Source of the DNA: a virus
Lineage: Duplodnaviria; Caudoviricetes
DNA: 26,750 bases
IMG/VR virus record: IMGVR_UViG_3300017713_000069
Location: 1-26,750 of that record
Strand: one strand, 5' to 3'
This document shows, piece by piece, positions 9,850 to 21,573 of this stretch (within the stretch, counting starts at the first letter, position 1; each line of letters opens with the position of its first letter). The notes under the pieces are model-generated. The model searched no databases and had not been told where the DNA came from. It was given only the letters and a program-made list of their open reading frames with translations. A program made the position numbers and the translations under genes.

Positions 9850-9867
9850 CTTATCTTTGTAGAAAAG
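9850..9867 (+). promoter_or_regulatory. TAnnTTTG promoter for the cupin/ejection-protein operon
   Basis: CTTATCTTTGTAGAAAAG in the 23-nt intergenic gap. TATCTTTG at 9852-9859, ATG at 9869. Confidence 0.75.
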
Positions 9868-11228: not shown

Positions 11229-13154
11229 ATGGCAAAAAGTTATTACGGTTACGTAGAAAGAGAGGCCTCTTCAGGGGTAAACTGGGAACAGATAGGTTCA
11301 GAGCTAACATCCAAACTAAAACAAGCTGGAGATGAAAGAGCGGCTCGTAGACAAGCTATTGATGATGCTTCTAAAGAATACCAAACTACATTAGACGATG
11401 CTCCTTCCGGGGATTTTAAACCTGCAAACCAATTTGCATTAGAACACGCTGCATCCGCACAACAAGCTCGACTTATGCAAGACAGACTTTTAAAGTCAGG
11501 TCTATTGAAATCAAAGGACTATACTATACAGAGACAAAATTTAACTGACGGAACAAATGAACTATTCGGTTTGTCTAAAGAGTATCAAAAAGAGTACACC
11601 GAAAAAATGGCCAGGCTAAAAGCTGGCGAGTCTCAAGAATTAGAAGGATGGTTAATGTCTCAAATAGAAGGTTTATCTAATTTAAGAAACACCGGAACAT
11701 ATATAAACCCAGAGACAGGGGTTGTAAGTATTTCAAAAGTAGTAGACAAGGATGGCGTAAGAACCATGAGCGAAGACCCTAATGATTTTATGACTGTTAA
11801 CCAATTAAGAAACAGGCAAAAAACTAAGTATGACAACTTTAAAGTTGGCGCTACAATGCAAGCTGAGGCTGATAGACTTGGAAGCTACATAACTACCCTT
11901 CGTAGTGCTGGTGGCCCAGGATATTCAGGTCAATTAAAAAAATTGCTTGACCCCACACAAAGAGGTAAACTTAGTGGAGACCAAGCAAAAGCTGTAGATA
12001 GCTTTACAAAGATGGAGGATGATATGATTAACTCTTATATTACAGCAAATCCATTAAACGGTTTAGCGGTATTAACAAACTACGTAACTACTAATCCAGA
12101 AACAGGGAAACGATACGACCTTACGTTTGACGAGAAGGCTGCTAAAGCAGACCCTAATATGATTTTAGTACGTGATGATGGCAGCGGAACGATTGAACCT
12201 GTGTTTACTGAAGCTCAATCTAAGGTTGCGTTTGATGCGGTTAGAGCAAACTTCAGAAACCAGATTGACCGAGAGGAAACAGTATCTACTTACACTGAAC
12301 AACAAGAAACTGCTACACAAGAACAAGCTGGAAGGCGTGAAAAAGCAGAAGATAATGCGCTTAGCTCTTGGAACGACATTGCTTACGGCACTCCAGAAGA
12401 AAAGTCTACAGCCATCAATCAATTGCTTGGAACAGATAAAGCCAAAAAATCTGGCGTGATAGCTATTGACACTTCAGTACCAGGTGAAGTAGTAGTAACT
12501 TACACTGACTCTTCTAAGAACAGAACAATAAACTACGACCCAGATAATATAACTATTCAAGAGTGGGCTGAGCTTGGTAATGAGATACACGGAGTGGACG
12601 ATGTGGCTACAGTTCTTGAGCGTTCAGGAGGCGCAAGATTTGTAAAAGATGCAGAAGGCAATAGAATACCTGCACCATTAGACTTTTCTGAAACTTCCAT
12701 GACAGATGTGTTCGCAACCAGAGAAGGGAAAACAGAGAGAGAAACTGCTACGCAAACTACTACAAGATTGTTAGAAGAAGGTATACCTGATTTAGATTTA
12801 TCGCAAGAAGAAGAACCTTCTATAGCTTTGCAAAAATACTTTGAATCTAATCCTCCACCATTTGGCTTAAAAATAACTGATGTATTTGGCCCCCAACAAA
12901 AAAAGGTTGAGGTTAGTGGTACTGTAGCGGGTAAAAAAATAAGCAGAAAATTTGATGTAAGCAAGCCTGGTGCAATGAAAGAAATAAGAGATTACATTTT
13001 ATCGCAGACTGATTTAGAGTCACTGGCTTTAGACCCTTCAATTGCAAGTCAAAGAAGAAACTTATCATACACACCTCGCTCGCAAAGACAAGCAGGTAGT
13101 GGGGATGCCGGAGGAGGCACACCACCTGTAATAAACACATCAGGATATAACTAA
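11229..13154 (+). CDS. Internal virion / ejection protein (middle)
   Basis: 641 aa, helical and charged, lacks Cys. Positioned between the pilot-like and giant genes. Confidence 0.55.
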   Translation: MAKSYYGYVEREASSGVNWEQIGSELTSKLKQAGDERAARRQAIDDASKEYQTTLDDAPSGDFKPANQFALEHAASAQQARLMQDRLLKSGLLKSKDYTIQRQNLTDGTNELFGLSKEYQKEYTEKMARLKAGESQELEGWLMSQIEGLSNLRNTGTYINPETGVVSISKVVDKDGVRTMSEDPNDFMTVNQLRNRQKTKYDNFKVGATMQAEADRLGSYITTLRSAGGPGYSGQLKKLLDPTQRGKLSGDQAKAVDSFTKMEDDMINSYITANPLNGLAVLTNYVTTNPETGKRYDLTFDEKAAKADPNMILVRDDGSGTIEPVFTEAQSKVAFDAVRANFRNQIDREETVSTYTEQQETATQEQAGRREKAEDNALSSWNDIAYGTPEEKSTAINQLLGTDKAKKSGVIAIDTSVPGEVVVTYTDSSKNRTINYDPDNITIQEWAELGNEIHGVDDVATVLERSGGARFVKDAEGNRIPAPLDFSETSMTDVFATREGKTERETATQTTTRLLEEGIPDLDLSQEEEPSIALQKYFESNPPPFGLKITDVFGPQQKKVEVSGTVAGKKISRKFDVSKPGAMKEIRDYILSQTDLESLALDPSIASQRRNLSYTPRSQRQAGSGDAGGGTPPVINTSGYN

Positions 13155-13158
13155 TAAT

Positions 13159-16100
13159 ATGAACGAACAAGCTTTTATAGATGCTTATAATATGTTCCTT
13201 CAAGGAGGGTACAGAGGGTCTCGTGATGAATTTAGAACTCTGATTGAATCTAATCCAGATGCGATGAATGATTCTTTTGAGATTTTTAAAAGCGGTGGAT
13301 ACAATGGTAGTATACAGGACTATCAAGTATTAATCGGCGTAGCTCCTGGTGAAGTAAAAAAAAAAGACAAGCCCGTTTTGGATTCAGCTGGGGACGCTGG
13401 TTTATCGGGGTTATCAGATACTGAGCGTCAAGACACTCAGCAAATATCTTTACAGCCACAAGTCGAAGTGGCCCAAGACAACACACGGGTAGCACAGCAA
13501 AAATTTATTGACCCGCGCGTAGCCATTGAACAGCAAGAGCAGAGAGATGCTTTTGAGGCTCAAAGAGAAATAGATATGCAGGCTTTTAAAAAAGAAGAGC
13601 AGGCGCAGATTGAGGCTGATGCAGAGGGAAGAGAAAAACAATCACAGGCTTTACTACAAGACGTTGAGTTTTCAACAGTTTTAAATAACATAGACGCTTC
13701 GCTTATAGATATGGAAGAAGAGTCTGTTGTTCCATTTATGATGGACAACTTTCAAAAGTACGGATTTACTTTTGAGGAAACAGGCATGGGTGATGCTATG
13801 ACTGTAACCACTGCTGACGGAAAAGAAACCATAACAATAGACCTTGACCCGTTCCTTTCAAAAACAGAAGTGCTGGAGTCTAAAAAATTAAAAGACTTTA
13901 TTACACAGTTTGCGATTGAATCGGAAGAGGTAACTCCAGAGGAAAGTCTTAACCAAAAAGCTATGCGTGCACAGCAAATGCGTAAGTATGCAAGGCTTAA
14001 TGCGGATGGCTCACAATCAAGTGTATTATTCACTTCCTTTGAAGAAGATGGAAAGCATAAGGTTATTCCAACCTTATTTCCAAAAGACCCTAACTTATAC
14101 GGCTCTAATAAAAACACTTGGCTTGAGCTGGGGTTTGATGAAGCTAAAAAATTAGCGGAAGAAAGAGGGGAAGTTTTTGAGTTTGAAACTGAGGAAGAGG
14201 CTCAAGAGTTTGCAGAAGGTTCTTGGAAAGATAGACACTCTTCAGATGCTTTAGGAAACTCAGTATTTGGCGAAGAGGGGTATGACTTTTCTTCAGAAAA
14301 AAAACAGTATCAAAATTATTTAGATGTTCGAGATAAAATAGATTTTATTGAGGCAGAACAAGCTGAGTTTGGCACAGAATATTTGTCAGAATTAACAGAG
14401 GAGGAGCGTAAAAAATATGGCAATCTTTATGTAAATGGAATCATGCGTGATGACATTGGTGTGGTTTTAAAGGAATTGAAAGAACAAGAAGACACTTTGT
14501 TTGATTTGGTTATGGATGATGACAAAGTAAGATTGCGAGAGAAGTTAGATGTCGAGCTTGACAAAAAATATAACGCTATAGCACAAACAGCAGCTCGCTC
14601 AAACAATTATGCTGACCTATCTTTAGATAATTTAAACCTTCAATCATTACAAACATTTGGCGTAGGCTTAGACCAGTTAAACACTATTGTACCTAAAGAC
14701 GATACTGAAGCTAAATTAATTGAAGCGCTATCTGTACAAGCTACAGAGGCTAAAACACTAAAAACAAACGCCGCACAAAAATATGAACAAGCATTAACAT
14801 TCTACGATGCTAAGCATGACCAAACTATTAGAGGAGAGTTTGAGGACAACTGGGCAGCGGTATCGTCAGAACTTAAAAAAGGACTGGACAATGGTAATGC
14901 CGCAGAGGTAATACTACAACTGTCAACAGGAATGGCTTTTGATTTCGAAAAATTAGACATCAACAACCCGGATGATGTAAAGAAAGCTGCCAAGATGATT
15001 GCTCTTTTAAAAGGTAAGGCCGCTGAAAAGAAAGATGCTCGTGTCATGTCAAGATGGAATAGAGCCAAAGGATTTAAAGAAACTTTTCAAGTTGTAAAGG
15101 ATAACCCATTGGAGTTAAGTTTGGCATTGGCTATGAACTCAATAGGGCTTATGCTTCCATACGGGATAGAATTTATTACATCGGGCGCTTTGGGCGGGAT
15201 AGCAACAGGCGCAACTTATGGAGCTGCTGCCGGAGCTGCTGTCGGTGGTGTAGGTGCTGCACCAGGCGCTGTTGCAGGAGCAATCGCAGGGTTAGCAAAA
15301 GGCTTGAGGGCTGGATTTGCAGCAACATCTTTTGCGATGGAGTATAGCAATGCTTTTTTTGACGCAATGCAGGCTCAAGGATTAAACCCTTTAGACCCTC
15401 AAGATGTAGAAGACGCTGTAATGAGTGAAGAAATTTGGGCGGTAACAAAACAAAGGGGTGTAGCAAGAGGTGTCCCTATTGCTGTTGTAGATTATATATC
15501 TTTTGGATTAGCAGGTAAGATATTTAAAGCGGGAACATTTGCAAGCAGAGGCCGAAGAGCAGTAACCATGCTTGCAGAAAGGGGTGTATATGACCCCATT
15601 GCAGAATCAACTGGTGAAGCTTTAGCTCAAATAAATGTGGGTGATGAGATAGATTGGAAAGAGATAGCCGCAGAAGGGCTCGGAGGTTTTGGAAACAACT
15701 CTTCTGGTATGGCTGTCAACACTTTTGTCGATACCCGTAAACTAAGCAACATTGAATTGGCTGATGCTTTGACTGATGTTACATTTGTGGCTGACCAAAA
15801 AAATAGTGGCACACAAATATCAAACTGGGCAACTCGCATGGAGCGACTTGGACAGATTGATGCCGAGCAAAACCAAAGGATACAGGAAAACTTAGGGCTG
15901 TCTAAAGACGCAGATAATCTTTTAGATTTAGGTAGAGCTAAAAACAAACCTATAAACAGGGAGTTAAAAGGTCGTGTGATGCAACTACTTGCTGCAAGAG
16001 AAGAGTACAGCGCAACCGCCAACAGAAAATCAGTGTTTGGTAAACAAATAGCTGACATAAACAATGAGCTTGAATACATAGCTCAGAATAAAAAATTATT

Positions 16101-19100
16101 ACCTACAGAACAAAGAGCTTTATTAGAAGGTATATTTGAGCCGACTGCTGAGGTTCGTCAAGACGTGGGTAGATATCGTATTGATGGCAAGCGTGTGACC
16201 AGAGAAAAGTTTATAAAATATATAAATAAAAATTCAAAAGAGCGTTTGTTAACTAAAATGCTTACTATTGATAACGATGAAGAAGTTAATAACCTTGTAA
16301 AAAATAAATTAGATGCCGTTCAAGTCAGAGAAACAGAGACGGTGGATGTGGGCGAACAAGCCAGAGATGGCCAAGAAGTGGGAGAAGGAGTACCCCAACT
16401 CGAAGCCGCGCAACCTGAGACCACCGAAACGCAAGATACTACCATAGAAATAGAAACTAAAATTAAAGATGATGCAAAACAAACAAGTGAAACCCCAGCA
16501 GGAAGCAGATTATTCAGCGAGCCCGTTAAGGATGCGAGCTCAATTGCTCAAAGAACTGCAGAAAGAACAGGAGTTGATTTCAAAGAAGCAGAGAGACTAA
16601 GTAAAATTGACGAAGACAGAGCCAGGAGGATAGCTCAAACTTATGAGAAGTTAGAGTCCAACCCTCAAGACCCTGAAGTTCAGAGCTCCTACAGAGCTTT
16701 GATTGATGAAACAGTAGAGCAGTATAATGACATTATATCAGAAGGATATACCATTGAGCTTGTTGATGAGAACCCCTACAATAATTCAGCTGAAATGTTA
16801 CGGGATGTTAATGAGAATAAAACATTAAAAATATTTTCTACTGAATCAGGGTTTGGAACTGAAGGAGTTACCGATACAGACAGGGCTAATAATTTAATGT
16901 TAGAAAGCACCACGTTTGTAGACAAGAATGGAAGACCTATGTTGGCGAATGATGTCTTTAGGTTTGTTCACGACTTCTTTGGACACGGCACATTGGGCAA
17001 TAGCTTTGGGCCTATTGGTGAGGAAAACGCCTGGAACGTACACTCAAGAATGTATTCTCCTTTGGCAAGACGAGCCATGACCACAGAGACACGAGGGCAA
17101 AACTCTTGGGTAAACTTTTCTGGAGTAAACAACAAAGCTCAAGATTTAATAAACGACTCAAGAGCATTAAGAAAAGAAGGTAAGTTTGAAGAAGCACAAG
17201 CCAAGGTAGATGAAGCTATGAAGCTGTTTAAGTTTGCTGACCAAAAGAACGCTCTAATGCCAGAGGAGTTTGTTCAGTTAGACGAGGAGGTTGATGTTAA
17301 GCCTACTGAAGCTCAAAGCTTAGAGGCTATTGTAGAGCCGGGTAGACCTCAACAAGAACAAACAACTGAACAACTAACACTTGAGATAGACCAAACAAAG
17401 GGTAGGCGTGGGATAAATCAAACTGAATTTTTTGTAGAGGCCGCTAATGAAAACGTAGATAACGCAAATAAGCTGACTGCGTTTATGGGTAAAGTATTCC
17501 CTGGTGTTGTTATTTCTACTGACCAACAGACGTTTGACGAAGTAGTAACTTCTGACCAAGTACAAAAGTATAGTGTGGGTGAAAATATTATTTATGGTAT
17601 GACTGTTAATGGTGACATATATATCAACCCACAAGTTCATAATAGCGAATCTAAAATGTTTAACACCGCCATTCACGAAATGGGTCACGTGTGGGTAAAG
17701 CATTTAAAGACTACAGAAAAGGGTCGTGCTATTTACAATCAGGGTATTACACTTGTAAAAGAAACTCCGTTATATTCTGAGCAATTAAAAAAATATAAAG
17801 GAGACGAGACCAGGGCCGCTGAAGAGGCTATGGCTATTCTTATTGGAGACAAGGGGCAGTCTATAGCTGACGCTGCTGTAAAAAGTAAATTCCAACAATG
17901 GCTTGCTGGTATGTGGAACTATATCAAGTCACAGTTTAAAATGTCTAAAGACTTAAGTGTTGATGAAATTCAAGACATGAATCTTGACGGGTTTATCGGT
18001 ACTGCGCTTGCAGATATATTTTCAGGTAGAGAAATAAAACTAACAGACCAACAGCTTACTGAACTTAAAGATGCTGACGTTGCGTTTAGTAGCGGAGTGT
18101 CAATGGAACAAATAATAACAACAGGTAGACAAAACGGATTTACTGACGCCAGTATAAAAGAGGTGCTTATAGGTAGAGGTTTTAACAAGACCGACATAAA
18201 CACAGCTATGGAGGTAAGGGTAAACGATATCGTAATGCCTAAAGAGTTTAGTCGTGTTGAAGGTGGAGTACAAGAAGCTACTAAATTATTTGAGGATGTC
18301 AGGAATGATTTGAATGAGTTTACTACAGATGAAACCTCTATGTCTGAAGTCAGACAGAAAGGCTTAGACTTAATGAAAGCTCACCCAGTGTATCAAGCAC
18401 AGCCGGAGCAGGTTCAGATGGAGCTTTTAAGCGCCTTTGACAGAACTATAGGTACACGAGCCAACCCTACTGTACAAAAAGAAATATCGTCCATTAGAAA
18501 GGCTCTGAGGGAGCGTAAGGCTGGACAAAAATTAGTTAAAGAAACGCAAGCTAAACTTACTGCGTTTATTAAAAGTGCATTACCTGTTTCAAATACATAT
18601 ACTCAGGCACAAATCAATAAGCTTATTAGGCGTGTAGCCAAGGCTACTACTGACACACTGCAAGCTGACGCTGAGTTTGTATTCAAAATAGTAGAGCAAC
18701 AACAGAACAAGATAAAGAATGCTATACTAAAGGATATGCTTAAGGTTGTAAGGACTAAAGCAAAGGCTGCATTCTCGGAGTCTGGAAAGAGAAGAGCTAA
18801 AGGATTAAGCAAAGAAGGTCAATCTTATTTCGGGCAAGTGCAAAAAGTATTAAAGGCCGCAATGACAAATGATGTTGAGGCAATGAACGACCTGCGCCAA
18901 ACTCTGATAGACAATGACTCAAAGATAAATGAGCTAATAGAGAAGAGACGTAATGGAGAAGCCATTACTCAAAGAGAACAAGACTTAGTTTTCTTAGCTA
19001 TGGCAATGGATAACTTTGGAGATGTAATGAATATGGACTTAGCTCAAGTTCAAGAGCTTATGTCTATGGTTAATAATATTAAAGCCTCATCTATAGCTAC

Positions 19101-21573
19101 GTTTAAATCCAGAAGGATGGAGCGTGTGCAAAAATATAGAGAGCAGTCTGACCAGGCAACGGAACAAATTAAAGACACTAACCCAGAGTTATTTGACGAG
19201 GAAGGAAACTTGTTGACGCAACAAGAATTAAGTCAAAAAAGAAAAGTAGTTCAAGAGCATTTTAAAAAGTTTAAAATCGGTCAAGGATTAATTGCTCTTT
19301 CAAAAGAAATGCTTTTCAAAAACACTAAAGAATTTTTAAGACAATCAACAATGTTCTTGAAACACTTGGGTACTCTTACAAATTTAGTTGACAGGGTAAC
19401 CAAGAACAAATCTATATTTACAGACAAGGTATATCGCTCTCTTAATAGAATGGACAACGACTACAACGCCGGGGTGTTTGAATCTGAAGACAAAATGAAT
19501 ACTATAGCAAATAGTATTGACGGAATAACAAAAGGGTATAATCAAATAAAAAGAATGATACCCACCGATGTGTTTACTCTAAATGTAAAAAACACAAAAA
19601 CAGGGCGAGTCCGTAAAGATAAGTTTAGCGGTGACCAGCTTATGCGTATTTATGCTTTAAGTAAAAATGATGTTCAAAGAGAAAAGCTTATAGCTCAAAT
19701 AGGAGAGGAAGGCATACAACAAGTAGAAGAAAGCTTAACGCCTGAGCTAAAGGAGTTTGTAGATAAAACTGTAGACTTTTTAAGCAATGAATATTATGAG
19801 GGAGTAAATTCTGTATACTCTCAAATGAATGATATAAACTTAGGGTATGTAGAAAATTATTTTCCAACCATCACGGAAACAGACAAACTTCCTGAAAACT
19901 CAATAAATGAGGGAGATTTTGATGGGATATTCAACGCTGAAACAGCGCCAGCTTTAAAAGAAAGAACTGATAGAACATCAGACATAGACTTAGATGTTGC
20001 TGATTTTACCTCTGCATTAGACAACCATTTCCAAACCATGGAAAAATATAAGTCTTATGCTGAAGGAACAAAAATGCTTAATGCTTTCTTTCAAATACCA
20101 GCCGTGGACACTTTATTGACTGAGATGGGCATACTAAGGAACATGAAGAAGGCTGTTAACTTTGCAGTCAACCCAAATGCAGGGATGAAAGATAGTCTAA
20201 GCATCAAAGCATTAGATGTGTTGCAAGTAAAATTTACCGGGTTTGCTTTAGCTTTTAAAGCCATACAAATATTAAAGCAAGCTACATCTTTTGTAAACGC
20301 ATATTCAGATTATTCTTATTTTCCTAAAGACTCCAAAACACCTCAGCCTTTAAGAAGCGCATTAGACCTGCCAATGTTTATGATTGACGGGGCTAAGGTT
20401 GTTCTTAGCCTGGCCAAAGATTTAGTTGGAAAGGATGGTGCTATACACCAAGCTATGGAAATTTCCCCTACGTTTAGAAAAAGAATTGCACAGGGGTTGG
20501 AGGGAGATATTCATGGATTAGAGAGTGGCTCAAAAACTTTTAGGCCTGTATCCAAATCAAACACAAAGGTTGGTAGAGCCATTAGGCTTTTTAAAACAGC
20601 TGCTGCTTCTCCTACTATAATCGGAGATGTTCTCGGAGTTATGGGATATATGATTAACTACAAAAGAAATATAGCTAACGGCATGAGCAAAGCCGAAGCG
20701 GTAGAAGCATTCAATGATTACAACGCGACACAGCAATCACGTAGAGGGGCTGATAAGATACCATTGCAAATGAATAGTAATGCACTTCAAAGAACTTTTA
20801 CTATGTTTGGCAGCACTTTATTCTTGCAGATAAACAAAGTAATGCAGTCCGGAACTAATATAATAAGAGCGGCAAAGGATAGAAAATTTCCTCGTGTTAA
20901 AGATGCAAGAGATTTTTATATAAACCTTGCGGTTGCCAACGTTCTTTTTGTTGGAGTTTCAAACATAGCTAAGTTTGTCAAGGGCGATGAAGAAGATAAA
21001 GAAGCGGCTATAAAAAAGATGTTAGAGGCAATGACGGGTATGAATTTAGCTTATCAGATACCTTTAGTCGGGGGGGTTGTTGAAGGTTTTGATGTGGCAG
21101 GCAAGATAATAGCCGCAGCAAAGGGAGAAGAATATAAGAGAGGAAAAATATATGACGATAATATCGTTAACCCTATTGAATCCGTGATGCGTAAAATAAA
21201 AAAGGCCATGGCAAATGAAGAAGGCTTCTTTAAATCACAAATACTCCCTATAATGGAAGTAGTTATTGGAGCGCAGGTAGACCCGTTTATTGGCTTAGCT
21301 AACTTGTTTAGCGAAGACGCTACCCCCGAAGAGTTTGAGGACAATATGTATGACGTGATTGGTATATCTCCATCTTATCGTCCAGAGAAAGACAAATCCA
21401 AGAAAAAGCCCATGAGCAAAACTGATATGAAAAAATTCTTCCCTCAGACATACGATGACTTGTATGGCCCCCAAGGTTCTTTAAGGGAGGTTGAAGAAGT
21501 CAAAAGAGAAATAGCAAGAGAGAAAAGACAACGAAAAAAAGAACTGAAAGAAGAGATATATGGTAATCAATAA
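13159..21573 (+). CDS. Giant internal virion / ejection protein, polyvalent type, with glycine-zipper segment and zincin-like metallopeptidase motifs
   Basis: 2804 aa. Gly/Ala hydrophobic stretch ~15115-15340. HDFFGH..GEENAW from 16969. IYINP..HEMGH..EEAMA with HExxH at 17674-17688. Long helical C-terminal region. Confidence 0.8.
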   Translation: MNEQAFIDAYNMFLQGGYRGSRDEFRTLIESNPDAMNDSFEIFKSGGYNGSIQDYQVLIGVAPGEVKKKDKPVLDSAGDAGLSGLSDTERQDTQQISLQPQVEVAQDNTRVAQQKFIDPRVAIEQQEQRDAFEAQREIDMQAFKKEEQAQIEADAEGREKQSQALLQDVEFSTVLNNIDASLIDMEEESVVPFMMDNFQKYGFTFEETGMGDAMTVTTADGKETITIDLDPFLSKTEVLESKKLKDFITQFAIESEEVTPEESLNQKAMRAQQMRKYARLNADGSQSSVLFTSFEEDGKHKVIPTLFPKDPNLYGSNKNTWLELGFDEAKKLAEERGEVFEFETEEEAQEFAEGSWKDRHSSDALGNSVFGEEGYDFSSEKKQYQNYLDVRDKIDFIEAEQAEFGTEYLSELTEEERKKYGNLYVNGIMRDDIGVVLKELKEQEDTLFDLVMDDDKVRLREKLDVELDKKYNAIAQTAARSNNYADLSLDNLNLQSLQTFGVGLDQLNTIVPKDDTEAKLIEALSVQATEAKTLKTNAAQKYEQALTFYDAKHDQTIRGEFEDNWAAVSSELKKGLDNGNAAEVILQLSTGMAFDFEKLDINNPDDVKKAAKMIALLKGKAAEKKDARVMSRWNRAKGFKETFQVVKDNPLELSLALAMNSIGLMLPYGIEFITSGALGGIATGATYGAAAGAAVGGVGAAPGAVAGAIAGLAKGLRAGFAATSFAMEYSNAFFDAMQAQGLNPLDPQDVEDAVMSEEIWAVTKQRGVARGVPIAVVDYISFGLAGKIFKAGTFASRGRRAVTMLAERGVYDPIAESTGEALAQINVGDEIDWKEIAAEGLGGFGNNSSGMAVNTFVDTRKLSNIELADALTDVTFVADQKNSGTQISNWATRMERLGQIDAEQNQRIQENLGLSKDADNLLDLGRAKNKPINRELKGRVMQLLAAREEYSATANRKSVFGKQIADINNELEYIAQNKKLLPTEQRALLEGIFEPTAEVRQDVGRYRIDGKRVTREKFIKYINKNSKERLLTKMLTIDNDEEVNNLVKNKLDAVQVRETETVDVGEQARDGQEVGEGVPQLEAAQPETTETQDTTIEIETKIKDDAKQTSETPAGSRLFSEPVKDASSIAQRTAERTGVDFKEAERLSKIDEDRARRIAQTYEKLESNPQDPEVQSSYRALIDETVEQYNDIISEGYTIELVDENPYNNSAEMLRDVNENKTLKIFSTESGFGTEGVTDTDRANNLMLESTTFVDKNGRPMLANDVFRFVHDFFGHGTLGNSFGPIGEENAWNVHSRMYSPLARRAMTTETRGQNSWVNFSGVNNKAQDLINDSRALRKEGKFEEAQAKVDEAMKLFKFADQKNALMPEEFVQLDEEVDVKPTEAQSLEAIVEPGRPQQEQTTEQLTLEIDQTKGRRGINQTEFFVEAANENVDNANKLTAFMGKVFPGVVISTDQQTFDEVVTSDQVQKYSVGENIIYGMTVNGDIYINPQVHNSESKMFNTAIHEMGHVWVKHLKTTEKGRAIYNQGITLVKETPLYSEQLKKYKGDETRAAEEAMAILIGDKGQSIADAAVKSKFQQWLAGMWNYIKSQFKMSKDLSVDEIQDMNLDGFIGTALADIFSGREIKLTDQQLTELKDADVAFSSGVSMEQIITTGRQNGFTDASIKEVLIGRGFNKTDINTAMEVRVNDIVMPKEFSRVEGGVQEATKLFEDVRNDLNEFTTDETSMSEVRQKGLDLMKAHPVYQAQPEQVQMELLSAFDRTIGTRANPTVQKEISSIRKALRERKAGQKLVKETQAKLTAFIKSALPVSNTYTQAQINKLIRRVAKATTDTLQADAEFVFKIVEQQQNKIKNAILKDMLKVVRTKAKAAFSESGKRRAKGLSKEGQSYFGQVQKVLKAAMTNDVEAMNDLRQTLIDNDSKINELIEKRRNGEAITQREQDLVFLAMAMDNFGDVMNMDLAQVQELMSMVNNIKASSIATFKSRRMERVQKYREQSDQATEQIKDTNPELFDEEGNLLTQQELSQKRKVVQEHFKKFKIGQGLIALSKEMLFKNTKEFLRQSTMFLKHLGTLTNLVDRVTKNKSIFTDKVYRSLNRMDNDYNAGVFESEDKMNTIANSIDGITKGYNQIKRMIPTDVFTLNVKNTKTGRVRKDKFSGDQLMRIYALSKNDVQREKLIAQIGEEGIQQVEESLTPELKEFVDKTVDFLSNEYYEGVNSVYSQMNDINLGYVENYFPTITETDKLPENSINEGDFDGIFNAETAPALKERTDRTSDIDLDVADFTSALDNHFQTMEKYKSYAEGTKMLNAFFQIPAVDTLLTEMGILRNMKKAVNFAVNPNAGMKDSLSIKALDVLQVKFTGFALAFKAIQILKQATSFVNAYSDYSYFPKDSKTPQPLRSALDLPMFMIDGAKVVLSLAKDLVGKDGAIHQAMEISPTFRKRIAQGLEGDIHGLESGSKTFRPVSKSNTKVGRAIRLFKTAAASPTIIGDVLGVMGYMINYKRNIANGMSKAEAVEAFNDYNATQQSRRGADKIPLQMNSNALQRTFTMFGSTLFLQINKVMQSGTNIIRAAKDRKFPRVKDARDFYINLAVANVLFVGVSNIAKFVKGDEEDKEAAIKKMLEAMTGMNLAYQIPLVGGVVEGFDVAGKIIAAAKGEEYKRGKIYDDNIVNPIESVMRKIKKAMANEEGFFKSQILPIMEVVIGAQVDPFIGLANLFSEDATPEEFEDNMYDVIGISPSYRPEKDKSKKKPMSKTDMKKFFPQTYDDLYGPQGSLREVEEVKREIAREKRQRKKELKEEIYGNQ
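13162..13335 (+). repeat. Tandem 30-aa repeat at the N-terminus of the giant protein
   Basis: NEQAFIDAYNMFLQGGYRGSRDEFRTLI vs NPDAMNDSFEIFKSGGYNGSIQDYQVLI: 11/28 identical, ungapped. Confidence 0.8.
13356..13424 (+). other. A10 slippery run with -1 frame extension RQARFGFSWGRWFIGVIRY* (candidate programmed frameshift or transcriptional slippage)
   Basis: GTA AAA AAA AAA GAC, with A run 13356-13365. The -1 frame is open from 13353 to TGA 13422-13424. A TGA at 13350-13352 and the lack of a start codon mean it is reachable only by slippage. Confidence 0.5.
16313..16447 (+). CDS. Nested +1-frame small basic protein MPFKSEKQRRWMWANKPEMAKKWEKEYPNSKPRNLRPPKRKILP (44 aa)
   Basis: ATG 16313 to TAG 16447 inside the giant gene. 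A-rich leader GTAAAAAATAAATTAG. 73/135 G+C (54%), far above the surroundings. Resembles a small phage protein family beginning MPFKSEKQRR that I recall as stand-alone genes. Confidence 0.7.
   Translation: MPFKSEKQRRWMWANKPEMAKKWEKEYPNSKPRNLRPPKRKILP
16469..16600 (+). CDS. Second nested +1-frame small ORF MMQNKQVKPQQEADYSASPLRMRAQLLKELQKEQELISKKQRD (43 aa)
   Basis: ATG 16469 (or 16472) to TAA 16600. Starts 21 nt after the first nested ORF in the same frame. A-rich leader AAATAGAAACTAAAATTAAAG. Confidence 0.4.
   Translation: MMQNKQVKPQQEADYSASPLRMRAQLLKELQKEQELISKKQRD

Follow-up and report, generated by a model that had tools for sequence, protein, structure and literature searches.

A Small Gene Nested Out of Frame in the Giant Virion-Operon Gene of a Flavobacteriia Podovirus Belongs to a Large Phage Peptide Family

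Results

The Nested Gene and Its Surroundings

We analyzed a 26,750-nt stretch of viral DNA (hereafter, the window). Muzzle-protein matches and gene order identify it as the virion operon of a podovirus of Flavobacteriia, a relative of Elemovirus and phi38:1. Its genes run in the order GroES, terminase, portal, a gene here termed scaffold-position, capsid, tail genes, and a giant gene, an order shared with a near-identical contig and with cultured phages of the Elemovirus and Pervagoviridae (phi38:1)-like group; the capsid protein of the window is 47% identical to that of elemo. The giant gene (13159..21573, + strand; 2804 aa) is the final gene of the + strand operon; its syntenic counterparts are gp18 of elemo and gp101 of phi38:1, each annotated as structural protein. 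The giant gene may encode an ejection protein, a label used in a preliminary description of this DNA that derives from position and from synteny with these "structural protein" genes.

ORF translation placed a small ORF (16313-16447, + strand) wholly within this 2804-aa ORF, on the same strand and in the +1 frame relative to it. It runs for 44 codons from ATG to TAG and specifies a basic peptide of what we call the MPFKS family; coordinates, frame, and peptide were all as first described. The conserved core (codons 1-26, 16313..16390) comprises a short N-terminal arm and two predicted helices joined at an Asn-x-Pro, and is followed by a variable Lys/Arg/Pro-rich tail and the TAG stop (16391..16447), over which constraint on the peptide frame persists. 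The peptide (5.5 kDa, pI 10.8) has 14 K/R vs. 4 D/E, in keeping with its earlier characterization as basic. Over the same bases (16312..16449), the host frame encodes residues 1052-1097 of the giant protein, a linker with 13 D/E and 2 K/R in 46 residues, which reads as previously quoted and is indeed acidic and tolerant.

Directly after the nested gene, the giant protein carries a phrog_3170 domain (window 16573-17124, residues 1139-1322) that is also common to free-standing proteins of Bxz1-like mycobacteriophages and to a Rhodococcus phage E3 protein annotated as structural, and the giant protein as a whole looks like a mosaic of mobile domains. We also noted a 95-codon +1-frame ORF (12172-12459, + strand) inside the 641-aa gene that precedes the giant gene; it has no TAAAA leader.

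A Large Family with Nested and Free-Standing Members

The peptide had been said to resemble a family of small, free-standing phage proteins. This likeness is real: the family is large and has both free-standing and nested members, so that homologues of both kinds, as anticipated for BLASTP and TBLASTN searches, were found. When candidates were compared, 86 of 92 matched the family at E ≤ 0.001, and the window peptide has the family's N-terminal MPFKS-x-x-Q core, Asn-x-Pro, Trp23, and basic tail. A profile search returned 4190 cluster representatives (50% clustering), 1632 of them at 1e-10, and we estimate that ~6800 IMG/VR stretches contain the family pattern, while a Pfam search gave no Pfam family matching the MPFKS peptide. 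All short products have a net charge of +5 to +22, and phages of Bacteroidota, cyanobacteria, and Streptomyces have almost the same core. An atlas comparison led to unnamed viral clusters and, as a lead, to DUF3008 at 0.85.

Among the best 80 viral loci, 30 copies were free-standing, 8 were nested in giant genes, and 42 lay in the ~400-codon scaffold-position gene between portal and capsid, for which there was no PHROG match and of which a cultured homologue is annotated "structural protein." Free-standing copies occur in five GenBank phages (P-RSP2, C75C1, psg01, FlowerPower, and S-CBS2), being annotated in two and unannotated in three. The free-standing genes encode the same peptide with different codons, and the frame equivalent to the host frame is interrupted by stops in 32 of 34 of them; the peptide family is therefore no shadow of a host motif. 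In two scaffold-nested phages, we further observed same-strand, out-of-frame ORFs of 186 and 235 codons in the terminase gene (L071:1453-2013 and L044:1397-2104); these had no PHROG match, and their mutual similarity may merely reflect the terminase frame.

Long proteins bearing the motif were also found (342), and the motif was N-terminal in all 120 of those listed, with varied C-terminal parts that include lysozyme and NUDIX domains. In 40 of 169 long fusions (P0087-P0346), the MPFKS module is followed by a second helix motif with abundant Ile, Arg/Lys, and Glu, vs. 0.8 expected from shuffles; other long fusions carry short double-Gly motifs. The second helix motif may resemble T4-type prohead-protease sites.

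More distantly, the window peptide matched phrog_1375 (E 0.0006) and phrog_5320 (E 0.01), and 44 of 55 family members matched phrog_1375 weakly (best E 3.7e-6). Alignment of the actinophage branch, present in 478 records, with the MPFKS family by hhalign gave a probability of 89.7 and E 1.8e-6. Against the family profile, just Troje and PG1 scored well; Patience gp10 reached 10.3 bits and is linked through Troje and PG1. PHROG 1375 and 5320 are thus likely distant relatives that form a separate cluster. Their proteins, among them Patience gp10, PG1 gp76, and SirHarley gp9, share with the family a 30-column core (37% identity between consensus lines), a strongly basic character, and a frequent place in the head module, but they are free-standing, are extended by a basic stretch at the N-terminus, and have a longer tail of Arg/Lys.

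The Nesting Is Conserved

To gauge conservation of the nested state, we used 63 giant-gene loci found via the next domain of the giant protein. A +1-frame nested ORF was present in 39 (three being near-copies of the window), a free-standing copy in one, and no match in the remaining 23, several of which are truncated upstream or come from other phage groups that share the domain alone. The nested gene was likewise present in 19 of 20 genomes with a capsid protein ≥67% identical to that of this phage, where one of the 19 had been selected via the peptide and the lone absentee genome is 47% complete. Across all records searched, there was at most a single match per record. All scored copies start with ATG, a count that is partly circular because the filter demanded a match from profile position 1.

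In the cultured phage elemoE_6-9C, the giant gene harbors a variant with Cys (NC_055854.1:52512-52640), nested in the same frame and unannotated. Its copy is matched in 68 Flavobacterium records, and among the 39 matches listed, the sole annotation was the host "structural protein." Thus, elemo shares both gene order and the nested gene with the window, whereas phi38:1 gave no match for the nested peptide despite the same gene order, from which the gene appears dispensable in the wider phage group. The elemo copy falls in a nested Cys subfamily (L097, L113, L123, L125, L140, L154:35173-35301, L288, and L289) whose peptides have two Cys and an insertion of 2-10 residues between the helices; a disulfide could stand in for helix-helix packing there.

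A second nested gene downstream was considered and rejected: neither the 34 giant-nested nor the 39 scaffold-nested copies were followed by a conserved ORF, and past codon 50 synonymous change was back. Six other +1-frame ORFs (≥30 codons) of the giant gene were not conserved in four relatives, where aligned, a rough control since the same alignment misplaced the real nested ORF in two of the four.

Both Frames Are under Selection

We then compared host four-fold sites within the first 26 nested codons with those in aligned flanks, using 12 non-overlapping pairs of giant genes and 19 pairs of scaffold-position genes. In the giant genes, 1 of 137 such sites had changed inside the nested region vs. 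488 of 1748 outside; for scaffold-nested copies, the corresponding numbers were 2 of 194 and 341 of 1342. When binned by position, synonymous change in giant genes dropped from ~25-30% to 1-8% over codons 0-49 and then recovered, and 17 of 19 scaffold pairs showed the same dip. Host codon changes within the nested region were nonsynonymous in 40 of 43 cases. Conversely, changes counted by codon position of the peptide fell mostly on the third (31, vs. 13 and 12), and identity was 0.61 for the nested peptide vs. 0.42 for the host frame. The nested frame, with its start, leader, and peptide sequence, is under purifying selection, and the host frame is selected too, loosely, just keeping open an acidic linker. 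The synonymous freeze in the host is confined to the small ORF, and with the conserved ORF and a Bacteroidota-type start of its own, it bears out the proposal of a real dual-coding locus.

The same double coding accounts for base composition. The jump to 54% GC reported earlier is genuine and unusual (54.1% in the nested ORF vs. 39.1 ± 4.8% for 135-nt windows of the giant gene, of which 1.4% reach 53%), but it is not the maximum of the giant gene, which is 61.5% at 15179, and it is a by-product. Across copies, the small gene has 50% GC when nested vs. 41% when free. At host first codon positions, T was found in 0 of 698 cases where a stop would result (partly by definition of that class) and in 4-7% of the others, compared with 20% in free copies, and G was favored; D/E made up 18-23% of nested linkers vs. 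10% in the same frame of free copies. The GC jump thus follows from T avoidance, G preference, and D/E richness in the host frame.

Translation Start and Transcription

The nested ATG is preceded by a translation-initiation leader (16298..16312, + strand), which is unstructured and has TAAAAA at 16298-16303 (−15 to −10). TAAAAA is the core initiation motif of Flavobacterium, with a spacer peak near 7 nt, according to PMC6028130. Among giant-nested leaders (n = 33), 64% had TAAAA between −20 and −5, as did 69% of scaffold-nested leaders (n = 36); the motif was present at 28% of ordinary starts (n = 198) and at 5.5% of other +1-frame ATGs (n = 5790). The window leader is predicted to fold hardly at all (−0.3 kcal/mol, a weakness seen in 2.4% of giant-gene windows). 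On a whole-leader profile, enrichment was moderate, 24% of giant-nested and 8% of scaffold-nested leaders lying above the controls' 95th percentile; the window leader lies at the 97.7th percentile of controls. The A-rich, Bacteroidota-type leader noted previously is therefore real, given the TAAAA enrichment and weak folding, and the nested gene has a predicted initiation signal of its own. We regard it as very likely that the gene is real and translated.

An internal promoter had also been claimed, at a promoter-like string (16290..16305, + strand) whose tail is the initiation motif. We took the TAnnTTTG -7 pattern as given in the preliminary description; a sigma-70 scan is uninformative for this host group. 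The string at 16290-16304 has one mismatch to TAnnTTTG, as have 248 sites on the + strand (9.3 per kb). Exact TAnnTTTG occurred in 0 of 35 giant-nested and 1 of 37 scaffold-nested leaders vs. 3% of controls, and one-mismatch forms in 10 of 35 giant-nested leaders vs. 30.5% of control windows. Compared with the 16-nt pattern of the intergenic sites at 976 and 9852, the string has 3 mismatches, being one of three such sites and among the five best window matches to this fuller pattern. With its core mismatch and a core pattern that is not conserved among relatives, the promoter claim did not hold up, and a working promoter at the nested gene is unlikely. The late-promoter-like intergenic sites are copies of the motif TATCTTTGTAnAAAAG (976-991, and 9852..9867 on the + strand, the nearest upstream), and the latter is likely the source of the mRNA that would carry the nested gene. 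The near-identical contig has a third variant of the TATCTTTGTAnAAAAG motif (L149:4920), ahead of its scaffold-position gene, and the tail of this motif may double as a TAAAA initiation motif. Four RNA runs, all consisting of contigs, gave small cover in short, low-depth pieces.

Two readings would dispense with translation of the small frame as a separate gene. One holds that the freeze reflects an element in the DNA or RNA, such as a promoter, packaging, or structural signal, and that the small frame is untranslated here. The promoter-like string lies upstream at a distance like that of real intergenic sites, and 4 of 35 giant-nested leaders have ≤4 mismatches to the fuller pattern vs. 22 of 1500 controls, as this view would have it; against it, changes concentrate at the third codon position of the peptide, peptide identity exceeds that of the host frame, and free-standing genes yield the same peptide through other codons, which leaves it very improbable. 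Programmed frameshifting into or out of the nested frame, giving a fusion with the giant protein, would have a parallel in other phages, where long proteins naturally carry the motif fused at their N-terminus. An in-frame TAG directly precedes the nested ATG in the window, however, and ≤10 codons are open upstream of the ATG in 30 of 34 giant-nested copies; slippery heptamers were present in 2 of 35 giant-nested copies vs. 24.5% of control windows, with none in the window's copy, so that we hold frameshifting to be extremely unlikely.

Age and Movement of the Nested Gene

In phages related to this one, the single copy is nested in the giant gene, sits 1-2 nt behind it, or is nested in the scaffold-position gene. 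In a quick tree of capsid proteins (51 rows, without bootstrap; partial and frame-broken capsids under 330 aa excluded), the giant-nested genomes formed one branch (support 99), apart from the scaffold-nested genomes. A scaffold-nested copy was seen in 0 of 80 loci with capsids near that of this phage, not all of which span that gene. One capsid match (G048:C1:17535-18972, L256) is broken into several frames, probably by sequencing error, and was excluded from the trees.

Of 38 records picked for the similarity of their capsids, 13 yielded a match, which was nested in a long frame in 8 records and free-standing in the other 5. All five free copies begin 1-2 nt past the stop of the giant-position gene, and one of the five adjoining giants has no tblastn match to the giant gene of the window. 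A second quick tree (without bootstrap) put the free copies among the nested ones and, on its well-supported branches, requires two or more changes. Within this clade, nesting therefore looks ancestral and release derived, or else the giant-gene region recombines; the gene has probably moved in and out of host genes by recombination.

The preliminary description called the gene overprinted. The polarity is probably the reverse, as the small gene is widespread and the host linker is found in nested copies alone. Free-standing and fused homologues exist in unrelated phages, unlike what de novo overprinting would leave. The size and wide distribution of the peptide family make the host linker the likely newcomer, and since the free state occurs in unrelated phages of the wider family, the small gene would be older than any linker that surrounds it. 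We infer that the small gene predates the linker reading through it.

Structure, Neighborhood, and Relatives in Particles

AlphaFold predicted helices at residues 6-15 and 17-26 and a loose tail (mean pLDDT 79.9). Against a viral structure library, only same-family or chance matches were returned (best E 0.038); the best PDB fold match to the two-helix model had Z 2.2, and PDB sequence searches gave nothing below E 0.1.

We also scanned 98 neighbors of 26 free loci (from 118 neighbors of 31, five near-duplicate loci having been dropped). The nearest long ORFs included a head-and-packaging gene at 14 loci, GroES at 4, and replication genes at 2, and were uninformative at 6, a count made without a background control on viral fragments, which are enriched for head genes. 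In SirHarley, the actinophage relative immediately follows the portal gene; in Konstantine and Patience, its place is between the portal and protease genes, while PG1 gp76 is outside the head module. The window gene fits the profile of a basic core protein, being small, strongly basic, and encoded in a head or late module.

For Patience, PMC4324244 (Table S1) gives stringent gp10 spectra of 4 and 2 in infected cells and 1 in particles, compared with 30-257 particle spectra each for gp111, gp11-14, and gp17; its authors called a 3-spectrum protein a possible contaminant. The latter proteins, which are gp10's neighbors, translate as Arg/Lys-rich. Patience gp111, gp10-14, and gp17 (L302:6881-10470) form a protamine-like cluster of Arg/Lys-rich particle proteins between portal and protease, several of which share an Ala-Ala-Leu-Lys-Lys-Ala-Gln-like helix.

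Discussion

We propose that the nested gene would be translated from its own TAAAA-led ATG on late mRNA, and that its product, a 44-residue basic two-helix peptide, may bind DNA and be packed inside the phage head, where, as a small internal head protein, it would neutralize or organize the packaged DNA. Basic charge, position in head modules, and the Patience gp10 signal favor this reading, which we prefer and to which we give about an even chance. The earlier suggestion of a DNA-binding or core protein thus stands as a best guess from charge and gene position, further support being one distant relative's weak mass-spectrometry signal. Two caveats apply: the near-invariant aromatic core exceeds the needs of mere charge neutralization, and the Patience gp10 particle signal is one spectrum, below the infected-cell counts.

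Another possibility is that the peptide is real but acts late in the infected cell, unpackaged, on a conserved host target, for example, the ribosome, RNA polymerase, a chaperone, or a protease. Phages of Bacteroidota, cyanobacteria, and Streptomyces share a near-identical core although their capsids are unlikely to share a pocket, gp10 spectra are higher in cells than in particles (PMC4324244), and 2 of 26 free loci are among replication genes. Such a role is nevertheless fairly unlikely, given that the gene sits in the head modules of unrelated phages, that the tails are uniformly basic, and that DNA is likewise a universal target. Alternatively, the first ~25 residues could be a docking or head-loading tag, so that the free peptide would be an assembly factor for scaffold or ejection proteins and the same tag would bring larger fused cargo proteins into the head. 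The N-terminal position of the motif in every one of the 120 long proteins listed, whose C-terminal parts vary, agrees with this, as do the second helix motif in 40 of 169 and the fact that, in this clade, the gene keeps to the giant gene, either within it or immediately behind it; but the ranking favors N-terminal matches, loss of a stop codon could simply yield long forms, and actinophage members carry basic extensions ahead of the motif, and we consider a tag improbable. The basic head-internal DNA-binding protein therefore remains the reading that we prefer.

Nesting of this kind has precedents. Gene E of phiX174 is nested in the scaffolding gene D, and in classical overprinting the nested frame is the new, lineage-restricted gene. 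The MPFKS gene resembles the E/D pair in its out-of-frame nesting and its own start, and in sister lineages, the host is a scaffold-position gene; it departs from classical overprinting in that the nested gene is widespread and the host linker is the restricted text. A second parallel is lambda Rz1, which lies inside Rz in the +1 frame, an embedded two-component spanin; overlapped and separated forms of spanins also occur (PMC6139136). Like the embedded spanins, the window gene is a small gene fully inside a larger same-strand gene and is overlooked by gene callers. Unlike them, its peptide bears neither a lipoprotein nor a membrane signal, with no Cys and no hydrophobic signal, and has no spanin family match, and its host is a 2804-aa gene of the virion operon, not of a lysis cassette. 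According to PMC6139136, moreover, no spanin family has both embedded and separated members, whereas the MPFKS gene is embedded and free within one clade and embedded in two unrelated host genes. Finally, genes 91 and 20 of Patience hold out-of-frame ORFs whose expression was demonstrated by mass spectrometry (PMC4324244). These share with the window gene the same strand, an own start, and a tailed-phage setting, but are poorly or not conserved, while the window gene is strongly selected across many genomes.

In the open-licence literature, we found no description of the nested arrangement, and the accessible parts of PMC11965321 and PMC13419713 do not mention the MPFKS family. Gene nesting in phages is itself already known; what differs here is the probable polarity, the two unrelated hosts, and the presence of nested and free forms in one clade. 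To our knowledge, nested genes in tailed phages are known from few fixed pairs.

Since one phage group includes nested states in two unrelated hosts as well as the free-standing state, how nesting arises and is lost can be compared directly from genome to genome. Annotation overlooks the nested copies of this very large family, for which there is no Pfam entry. The nested form is present in culture, in elemo phages that grow on Flavobacterium sp. BAL314, and the distant free-standing form occurs in hundreds of M. smegmatis mycobacteriophages (478 records). More tentatively, and on balance doubtfully, the MPFKS peptide may be a near-universal head-loading or DNA-packing module of tailed phages, its gene a movable cassette that enters and leaves the linkers of large virion genes repeatedly. 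If so, each insertion would write a new acidic linker into its host protein, overprinting in reverse, and thousands of gene copies would be escaping annotation.
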